Origin: a virus
Lineage: Duplodnaviria > Heunggongvirae > Uroviricota > Caudoviricetes
Length of the DNA: 41,033 nucleotides
Direction: 5' to 3' (one strand)
IMG/VR virus record: IMGVR_UViG_2541047701_000006
Shown here: in pieces, positions 9,348-10,289 of the stretch
Layout of the letters: each line of letters starts with the position of its first letter
How positions within the stretch are numbered: the stretch's first letter is position 1
Program-made: the position numbers and the translations under genes
The notes under the pieces: model-generated
Told to the model about the DNA's origin: nothing
The model's database searches: none
The model's input: the letters and a program-made list of their open reading frames with translations, nothing else

Positions 9348-10289
9348 ATGAGCACTAAATTAACCGGCTATGTATGGGATGGTTGCGCTGCGTCAGGCAT
9401 GAAGTTATCCAGCGTGGCAATTATGGCCCGCCTGGCTGATTTCAGTAATGACGAAGGTGTGTGTTGGCCATCAATTGAAACCATTGCCCGCCAGATTGGC
9501 GCGGGGATGAGTACCGTCAGAACGGCTATCGCACGGCTGGAAGCAGAAGGCTGGTTAACGCGTAAGGCGCGTCGCCAGGGTAACCGCAATGCGTCGAATG
9601 TTTATCAGCTTAACGTTGCGAAGCTTCAGGCAGCGGCATTTTCTCAACTGTCAGATTCTGACCCGTCAAAATCTGACGCATCAAAATCTGACCCGTCAAA
9701 ATTTGATGCGTCGAAATCTGGCAAAAAAGCGGGTTTTCACCCGTCAGAATCTGGCGGGGATCCGTCAGTAAAATCAAAACATGAACCGTCAGATAAAAAA
9801 CCTTCTCGTCCGGACGCTTCGCAACCGGACACGCAGACGGATGAACAGGATTTTTTAACTCGCCATCCTGATGCGGTTGTATTCAGCCCTAAAAAGCGCC
9901 AGTGGGGAACGCAGGATGATTTGACCTGCGCACAGTGGCTCTGGAAAAAAATCATCGCCCTGTACGAGCAGGCCGCCGAATGTGACGGCGAGGTGGTTCG
10001 TCCCAAAGAACCGAACTGGACAGCCTGGGCAAACGAAATTCGCCTGATGTGTGTGCAGGATGGTCGTACTCACAAACAAATCTGCGAGATGTACAGCCGC
10101 GTCAGCCGCGATCCGTTCTGGTGCCGTAACGTGCTCAGCCCGTCGAAGTTGCGGGAAAAATGGGATGAGCTTTCCCTGCGCTTATCGCCGTCCGTCAGCA
10201 CGCACACAGAAAAACGCGAAGACCCGTACTTCAAAGCCAGTTACGACAATGTGGACTACAGCCAGATCCCGGCAGGATTCAGGGGGTGA
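9348..10289 (+). CDS. Replication initiation protein (O-like, N-terminal winged HTH)
   Basis: N-terminal HTH (VAIMARLADFSNDEGVCWPSIETIARQIGAGMSTVRTAIARLEAEGWL); internal repeat-encoded linker; no separate helicase-loader gene follows. Confidence 0.7.
   Translation: MSTKLTGYVWDGCAASGMKLSSVAIMARLADFSNDEGVCWPSIETIARQIGAGMSTVRTAIARLEAEGWLTRKARRQGNRNASNVYQLNVAKLQAAAFSQLSDSDPSKSDASKSDPSKFDASKSGKKAGFHPSESGGDPSVKSKHEPSDKKPSRPDASQPDTQTDEQDFLTRHPDAVVFSPKKRQWGTQDDLTCAQWLWKKIIALYEQAAECDGEVVRPKEPNWTAWANEIRLMCVQDGRTHKQICEMYSRVSRDPFWCRNVLSPSKLREKWDELSLRLSPSVSTHTEKREDPYFKASYDNVDYSQIPAGFRG
9649..9800. repeat. Iteron-like direct repeats inside the replication gene (candidate phage origin)
   Basis: Eight roughly 15-bp units (CCGTCAAAATCTGAC / GCATCAAAATCTGAC / CCGTCAGAATCTGGC ...) in tandem, followed by an A-rich stretch. 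Confidence 0.55.

Follow-up and report, generated by a model that had tools for sequence, protein, structure and literature searches.

Introduction

In bacteriophage lambda, the origin of replication is embedded in the middle of the gene for the initiator protein O, where a set of iterons with dyad symmetry is followed, on the C-terminal side, by an A/T-rich tract (PMC7466680). Origins of the same design are present in Shiga toxin (Stx) phages, including the six-iteron origins of 933W and P27, and the difference in iteron number between these relatives (four in lambda versus six in the Stx phages) changes the residues of the linker that this part of the gene encodes (PMC7466680). In all of them, the N-terminal domain of the initiator and the iterons constitute one specificity unit. 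Here we analyse a stretch of 41,033 nucleotides from a virus of the Caudoviricetes (IMG/VR record IMGVR_UViG_2541047701_000006; hereafter the window), in which the gene for an O-like replication initiator of 313 amino acids (positions 9348–10289, plus strand) contains a repeat array. Sequence comparisons lead us to propose that positions 9642–9830, within the linker-coding part of this gene, are very probably the vegetative replication origin of an SfII/CPS-53-type prophage. We favour this reading because the array occupies the position of ori-lambda, because the region is constrained at the level of DNA, because the N-terminal domain and the repeats covary, and because the infective phages of this type carry no other replication gene.

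Origins inside initiator genes are reportedly also present in P22 (gene 18), phi80 (gene 15) and SPP1 (gene 38, oriL). In these modules, a single origin-binding protein with repeats in its own gene is combined with host helicase loading, and we liken the present locus to them by architecture alone. Iteron plasmids such as RK2 (oriV/TrfA) and F (RepE) also combine a winged-helix initiator with a cluster of its binding repeats and with adjacent A/T-rich short direct repeats of about one helical turn. They differ in that Rep binds directly repeated iterons as a monomer possessing two winged-helix domains, whereas the present locus has dyads and one winged helix, and in that their origins are intergenic and usually include DnaA boxes, whereas the array described here lies inside a gene with no DnaA box nearby. 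The plasmids pIGRK and pIGMS31, found by keyword, were considered as parallels and set aside as unrelated in arrangement.

Results

A repeat array in the ori-lambda position of an O-like gene

Along its entire length, the initiator protein matches phrog_391 ('replication initiation O-like'; E 5e-135), and BLASTP aligns its residues 70–277 colinearly with residues 78–270 of lambda O (31% identity, E 4e-26). Searches with tblastn against many lambda and Stx phage records gave E 1e-18, the identity ranging from 31 to 36% across searches. Judged by these alignments, the C-terminal domain is clearly homologous to that of lambda O and, given the colinearity, the repeat-encoded linker falls where ori-lambda, with its iterons and AT-rich tract, lies. 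The N-terminal domain is not of the lambda O type: the lambda O alignment starts only at residue 70, and Pfam gave an HTH_36 winged helix (residues 23–70, E 4e-11) together with GntR/MarR-like hits and nothing else.

The first-pass annotation of this DNA had described eight tandem repeats of about 15 bp, situated within the initiator coding sequence and encoding a repetitive linker. Both the location and the linker (SDPSKSDASKSDPSKFDASKS in the initiator frame) were borne out, and the array is genuine, well in excess of chance, but does not consist of eight equivalent copies. Tandem Repeats Finder reports 9657–9720 with either a period of 15 and 4.3 copies (81% matches) or a period of 30 and 2.1 copies (88%). 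The repeat unit is a 13-bp dyad, GTCAGA-w-TCTGAC, a phase which fits the first, last and isolated copies too. Five such iterons stand in tandem at 9650–9722 with a centre-to-centre distance of 15 bp: GTCAGATTCTGAC (start 9650, a perfect palindrome), GTCAAAATCTGAC (9665), ATCAAAATCTGAC (9680), GTCAAAATTTGAT (9695) and GTCGAAATCTGGC (9710). Beyond a 20-bp spacer containing an A6 and a T4 tract (AAAAAAGCGGGTTTTCACCC, 9723–9742) lies a sixth, distal iteron, GTCAGAATCTGGC (9743–9755), whose core CAGAATCTG is conserved, often as the perfect dyad CCAGAATCTGG; the A5-6...TTTT layout of the spacer is likewise retained in other genera. All six dyads fall within codons 101–136, between the DNA-binding domain and the C-terminal domain. 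What had been counted as copies seven and eight are merely CCGTCAG half-matches (9761 and 9785) belonging to a second element, a block phased every 12 nt that adjoins the iterons.

Scanning the window for the pattern GTCARAWTCTGAC with up to two mismatches yielded 14 strand matches against an expectation of 3.2 ± 2.3, a count reached by none of 100 shuffles, and 11 of the 14 come from the six sites within 9650–9755. Only two further sites of the dyad motif occur in the 41 kb at the same threshold. There is no second cluster of the motif anywhere in the window, nor did Tandem Repeats Finder report any other comparable array in it. A promoter scan found no promoter-like site in the origin region, and GATC is not enriched (164 found versus 161 expected). 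On the minus strand, the spacer between iterons five and six (9730–9743) presents a terminator-like hairpin, CGGGTGAAAACCCG, followed by T6, which is probably incidental as a terminator, its stem not being conserved in other genera. Two alternate-frame open reading frames (ORFs) that overlie the array (9589–9771, plus strand; 9610–9777, minus strand) were treated as by-products of the repeats and not as genes.

Constraint at the level of DNA

Scanning a single genome from each species yielded 80 loci, of which 65 were aligned with the window and with phage phiNP, giving 67 sequences. The 65 loci come from Citrobacter, Kosakonia, Enterobacter, Buttiauxella, Kluyvera, Yersinia, Pantoea, Tatumella, Rahnella, Ewingella, Providencia, Proteus and other enterobacterial genera. 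Across the alignment the number of units varies from 2 to about 9, always in 15-nt phase, and the sequences retain the distal site together with the block GGGGATCCGTCAGTAAAwTCAAAACAwGAwCCrTCAGATAAAA. When codons at conserved residues are compared, the mean fraction taken by the most frequent codon is 0.54 for codons 5–97 and 0.63 downstream, versus 0.90 (median 0.98) for codons 99–161 (Mann-Whitney p = 3e-19). This zone of synonymous-site constraint, 9642–9830, defines the proposed extent of the origin. The serine codons illustrate the bias, since 531 TCA and 332 TCT make up 86% of the 1003 in the linker, whereas the N-terminal domain uses all six, spread evenly. The comparison with phiNP, which is 83% identical at the nucleotide level in the N-terminal half of the gene, follows the same pattern: third positions of codons for identical residues match in 33 of 34 cases within 9648–9767 versus about 50% in the N-terminal domain. 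Within the dyads the arms are fixed, while the centre varies between AAA, GAA, GAT and AAT and so replaces the encoded residue by K, E, D or N. The near-frozen synonymous sites, the fixed arms around a variable centre and the natural cassette swap in mEp460_4F5 (see below) together lead us to conclude, on comparative grounds, that selection acts on the DNA and not on the peptide.

The N-terminal domain and the iterons form an exchangeable cassette

Phage mEp460_4F5 is 98.4% identical to the window across 8396–9353 and 98.8% identical across 9793–11500, but between these flanks it encodes an unrelated N-terminal domain and carries unrelated repeats (23 bp, 5.4 copies) followed by 3.2 copies of ACAGAGAATACA. 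With the same flanks and C-terminal domain and a different N-terminal domain and repeats, the comparison shows that the N-terminal domain and the iterons behave as one exchangeable specificity cassette (9354–9792). In phiNP, the same class of N-terminal domain is accompanied by the same iterons, while the C-terminal domain is different and the flanking genes are distant relatives only (about 70% identical).

More distant initiators extend this covariation. Three loci with N-terminal domains 55–69% identical to that of the window (L086, L088 and L070) keep the 15-nt period with altered dyads, namely GTCAAnnnTTGAC, GTCCAGAwwCTGrAC and GTTCAGAwTCyGAAC, respectively. Relatives whose N-terminal domains are only 34–41% identical, among them sequences from Psychrobacter, Thermomonas, Thorsellia and a Phlomobacter metagenome-assembled genome, possess repeats of their own, with periods of 12 to 23 nt, in the same part of the gene. 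In SfV, repeats of 21–24 bp occupy this position, and the distant classes overall have repeats of 18–24 bp.

A conserved A-rich block and the GAACCnnTCA element

The A-rich stretch that the first-pass annotation had placed after the repeats is real though modest. It is a block at 9759–9806 which is phased every 12 nt (GATCCGTCAGTA|AAATCAAAACAT|GAACCGTCAGAT|AAAAAACCTTCT), includes two copies of GAwCCGTCAG (9759 and 9783) and is a candidate DNA-unwinding element. Its G+C fraction of 0.325 (9760–9799) is the lowest of the region, and it provides the least stable 30–40-nt duplex window of the gene, with about 2.4% of such windows in the 41 kb being as unstable. Synonymous sites in the block are essentially fixed in the 67 loci, and the block (GATCCGTCAG...) is kept in L086, L088 and L070, the three initiators with different iterons. 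As a separate observation, a single GATC at 9759–9762 (codons GAT CCG) is shared by all 67 sequences of the alignment, and the phage itself encodes a Dam-type methyltransferase (10747–11433) about 1 kb downstream of this GATC.

In the distant classes, two to four direct copies of GAACCnnTCA(A/T)n with a period of 11–12 nt immediately follow the iterons. Counted from the start of the gene, the copies lie at nucleotides 374, 391, 403 and 415 in SfV (L003 2131–2183), at 382, 394 and 406 in L077, and at 407, 418, 429 and 439 in L081. Spacings of 11 nt in L081 and 17 nt in SfV put the copies in different reading frames, which identifies the element as a DNA repeat and not a peptide repeat. Further loci with the repeat are L079, L080 and L082, and L169–L287. 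An exact search for GAACCNNTCAWNGAACCNNTCA in viral contigs found at least 119 loci; for 97 of the 119 listed (82%), it falls 333–444 nt past the start of an HTH_36-like N-terminal domain, within the ORF that encodes this domain. These 97 loci comprise nine clusters of N-terminal domains (identity between clusters at most about 70%), each with different iterons upstream, and as 77 of 98 listed matches are of the SfV type, the non-redundant count is nine classes. The paired GAwCCGTCAG of the window looks like a diverged version of this element.

Repeats with a period of about one helical turn adjoin the iterons in the window (the 12-nt block) and in the other classes (GAACCnnTCA, 11–12 nt), and may correspond to the direct repeats of a plasmid-type unwinding element. 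In plasmids, the 13-mers of the unwinding element are bound in single-stranded form by the winged-helix Rep protein and all of them are required (PMC4081077, PMC10602881). By analogy, the GAACCnnTCA repeat may form part of an unwinding element, and we offer a broader scheme only tentatively, as a possibility that we think has rather less than an even chance of being correct. Initiators with HTH_36 and the signature 'LADxxNDEGxCWPS', the present one among them, might have a two-part origin, in which class-specific dyads are joined to the class-independent GAACCnnTCA as a sequence-specific unwinding or single-strand-binding element; recognised by the invariant portion of the initiator or by a factor from the host, this element could let an O-type protein load the host helicase without P. 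The literature searched contains no description of the GAACCnnTCA element. In lambda, the stretch GTCAGAGAATTCTGGCGAATCCTCTGAC that lies on the right of the AT-rich tract resembles window 9743–9768 (GTCAGAATCTGGCGGGGATCCGTCAG), and GTCAGAGAATTCTGGCG, on the same side of the tract, resembles the sixth iteron, a likeness that is suggestive only.

Domain structure of the initiator

An AlphaFold model of the initiator was built from 20 homologues. The N-terminal winged-helix DNA-binding domain (residues 1–99, 9348–9644), which is the presumed reader of the iterons, is predicted to have the order H-H-H-H-E-E-H with a predicted local distance difference test score (pLDDT) of 67–90. In a PDB fold search, which matched the winged helix only, its closest counterparts are winged-helix dimers of the MarR/ArsR type, at weak Foldseek E-values of about 1e-3; for several of these dimers the structure was solved with DNA bound. 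Such proteins function as dimers, in keeping with the recognition of dyads by this domain. The linker (residues 103–164, 9654–9839) is predicted to be disordered, with pLDDT below 50 and no secondary structure, and indels among homologues are mostly blocks of five residues, equal to one 15-nt unit. There follows a helical C-terminal domain (residues 165–281, 9840–10190) with pLDDT of 58–90, mostly above 75 from residue 191. Its identification comes from BLASTP and tblastn against lambda O only; Pfam, NCBIfam and PDB sequence searches of this domain returned no family and no structure.

Past residue 281 the tail is disordered in the model and ends in PxGFR(G), with P308, G310, F311 and R312 invariant across the homologues (alignment A1). 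The last 76 nt of the gene (10214–10289, encoding the tail REDPYFKASYDNVDYSQIPAGFRG) are 96–97% identical in many phages with otherwise unrelated initiator genes, including SfV, mEp460, cdtI and Stx2a and Stx2c phages. This conserved tail could be a module junction, a docking peptide for a host protein, or both. One homologue, P0076, is labelled 'Replication protein 15' by its source.

Copy number among close relatives

A scan of viral contigs with an alignment of the N-terminal domain recovered near-identical relatives only, and so informs copy number rather than diversity. Of these 80 contigs, whose N-terminal domains are 99–100% identical, 70 have exactly the six sites of the window, and in 7 the number is off by one or two complete 15-nt units; the other 3 are a frameshifted copy, a truncated copy and a full-length copy with one site beyond the two-mismatch limit. 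Free variation of repeat number among close relatives, with no effect on replication, had been named in advance as the observation that would refute a lambda-type origin, and with 70 of 80 relatives identical the reading survives. Such variation is in any event a weak refuter because lambda and the Stx phages themselves differ in iteron number. Clusters of the protein point the same way, as the 313-residue forms have 5414 and 117 members and shorter or longer forms are rare. In two E. coli loci (L054 and L074) the initiator gene is broken at residue 79 and fused to unrelated sequence; these copies, like the array-less ones discussed below, are likely to belong to decaying prophages.

An initiator-solo replication module

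The host element is an SfII/SfIV/CPS-53-type prophage. The O or 'primosomal protein' genes of phages Kati, SfIV and SfII are 98.7–99.0% identical to the window gene at the nucleotide level (98.7–98.8% for the SfII and SfIV versions), and SfII and SfIV are phage genome records reported as isolated, infective phages (PMC3772137, PMC3851460). Of 5426 complete E. coli genomes, 2725 contain a match to the gene; in K-12 this is the truncated copy yfdO in CPS-53, which adjoins yfdN.

The setting is that of a lambdoid early-right operon. Starting from a CI-like repressor on the minus strand (7445–8122), the order is cro-like, CII-like, two small ORFs, O, PerC/YfdN-like, the Dam-type methyltransferase, LexA-like, RusA, a KilA-N-type regulator, HNH/DUF968 and Q, the gene directly downstream of the initiator encoding a winged helix-turn-helix and PerC-like protein (YfdN). 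No P-, DnaC- or DnaB-like gene is present in the complete SfII genome or among the larger early ORFs of the window, and neither the SfII genome nor the early region of the window contains any other replication gene. On this basis of gene content we call the module 'initiator-solo'.

Two further features of this region were recorded. Upstream of the initiator gene, a 112-residue ORF (9000–9338), which matches phrog_1170 over its full length and phrog_20047 over residues 1–63 only, is overlapped by 160 nt in another frame by a DUF4222 ORF (9179–9358; PF13973, E 6e-19). The former is annotated in the SfII record and the latter in RefSeq E. coli, and the pair could represent conflicting gene calls, a genuine overlap or a frameshift. 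The KilA-N-type regulator gene opens with a short tandem repeat of TGATGGTAT (2.3 copies, 12172–12193), which is conserved in mEp460_4F5 (L002 4886–4907) and SfV (L003 4459–4480).

Discussion

A proposed mechanism

If 9642–9830 is the origin, dimers of the N-terminal winged helix would bind the six dyads and, with a 15-bp spacing of about 1.4 helical turns, adjacent dimers would sit on approximately opposite sides of the helix. The bound dimers could then jointly form a complex resembling the O-some, which would stress and open the A-rich 12-mer block at 9759–9806 and possibly also the A6/T4 spacer. The C-terminal domain of lambda O binds P. Because the present phage encodes no P, DnaC or DnaB, we propose that its lambda-O-like C-terminal domain, or the conserved C-terminal tail, recruits the host DnaB (with DnaC) directly. 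Transcription from the early rightward promoter would cross the origin, as in lambda, and the encoded peptide would be a mere disordered tether, which would free the DNA to evolve as a cis-acting site.

Comparison with the lambda origin

The first-pass annotation had called the arrangement a classic lambda-type origin within O. The O-like gene, the position of the array within it, the selection on DNA and the cassette behaviour all uphold the lambda-type assignment, and like lambda O the gene stands in a rightward early operon past cro and cII-like genes. It is not, however, fully classic. Lambda has four iterons of about 19 bp, whereas the dyads here are 13 bp long with a 1-bp centre and are spaced by exactly 15 bp, one further copy being set apart; the A/T-rich part, with its 12-nt phasing, is both shorter and weaker than its lambda counterpart; the N-terminal domain is of the HTH_36 type and gives no hit to the lambda O N-domain family; and no P gene or other helicase loader lies downstream of O.

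Alternative explanations

The dyads might be initiator-binding sites that serve mainly autoregulation or copy control, as a roadblock, an operator within the O gene or a site of handcuffing, with unwinding and priming taking place elsewhere. Dyads bound by winged-helix dimers are indeed typical of operators, the fold matches are to MarR-type repressors, the A-rich block is moderately unstable only, and in iteron plasmids the repeats that bind the initiator serve both control and initiation (PMC4980987). We nevertheless regard this as unlikely in view of the homology of the array position to ori-lambda, the conserved A-rich 12-mer-phased element that adjoins the sites in every class, and the isolation of the array, which has no counterpart in the 41 kb either as a cluster of the motif or as a tandem repeat. 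The region could also be a recombination junction between modules, where similarity is maintained by frequent exchange and not by function. Module boundaries do lie at or near the zone, with mEp460_4F5 identity resuming at 9793 and phiNP homology ending at 9826, and comparable conservation across phages is seen in the final 76 nt of the gene. However, a junction leaves the dyad symmetry, the fixed arms with their variable centre and the covariation with the N-terminal domain unexplained, and analogous arrays recur in other gammaproteobacterial orders (Psychrobacter, Thermomonas), such that this account appears very improbable.

Two other accounts, each of which we judge to have hardly any chance of being right, dispense with a cis-acting DNA site. 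In one, the SDPSK repeats are simply a low-complexity, slippage-prone linker, as might be suspected of a repetitive peptide that is predicted to be disordered and whose unit number shifts by whole blocks of five residues. This is at odds with the near-invariance of synonymous positions across genera alongside radical changes of the residue at the dyad centre, with the fact that every unit is a DNA palindrome, with the covariation of repeat sequence and N-terminal domain, and with the adjacent repeat, which is spaced by 11 or 17 nt in L081 and SfV and is therefore read in different frames. In the other, conservation reflects a structure in the mRNA or single strand, for example a hairpin that regulates the translation or stability of O. 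The sequence at 9640–9830 folds with z = -5.8, with a long hairpin over 9649–9723, but any array of dyads would fold likewise. The only match in an Rfam scan of 9000–10600 is to a eukaryotic microRNA hairpin family, at 30.7 bits versus a gathering score of 97, and is caused by the palindromes. Moreover, the dyad arms are fixed instead of showing compensatory changes of pairs, and the geometry of the hairpin shifts with the number of units. No rival accounts at once for the symmetry of the dyads, the invariance of their arms around a variable centre, the covariation of repeats and N-terminal domain, and the positional homology to ori-lambda.

Several points do weigh against 9642–9830 being an origin that works as proposed. 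The literature searched contains no experimental report of binding, unwinding or initiation by this initiator family, and recruitment of helicase without P is inferred from the absence of genes only. No DnaA box lies near the array, the sole match to TTWTNCACA in the 41 kb being at 35844. The A-rich block reaches only about 68–70% A+T, and less stable stretches exist in the early region. In-frame deletions have removed most or all of the array from some prophage copies (P0015, P0017, P0034 and P0063), and one of these forms (P0034) occurs on 128 Salmonella contigs. Finally, the synonymous conservation could stem in part from recent recombination at the module junction.

Significance

An origin inside an O-type gene is a known, textbook-like arrangement and as such not surprising. 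The iterons and the extent of the origin in the SfII/CPS-53 family are not annotated in the database records compared nor described in the literature searched, and the published SfIV and SfII papers make no mention of an origin (PMC3772137, PMC3851460). The analysis thus supplies a precise, probable origin (9642–9830) and a specificity cassette (9354–9792) for a very common prophage replication module, which occurs in K-12 (CPS-53) as well as in SfII and SfIV, phages that convert the serotype of Shigella. The exchange of cassettes provides natural swap experiments for the specificity between initiator and iterons. It also raises the question of how a C-terminal domain of the lambda O type would load DnaB without P, and what role the class-independent GAACCnnTCA repeat may play; the P-less initiator and this repeat are the parts of the system most worth following up.

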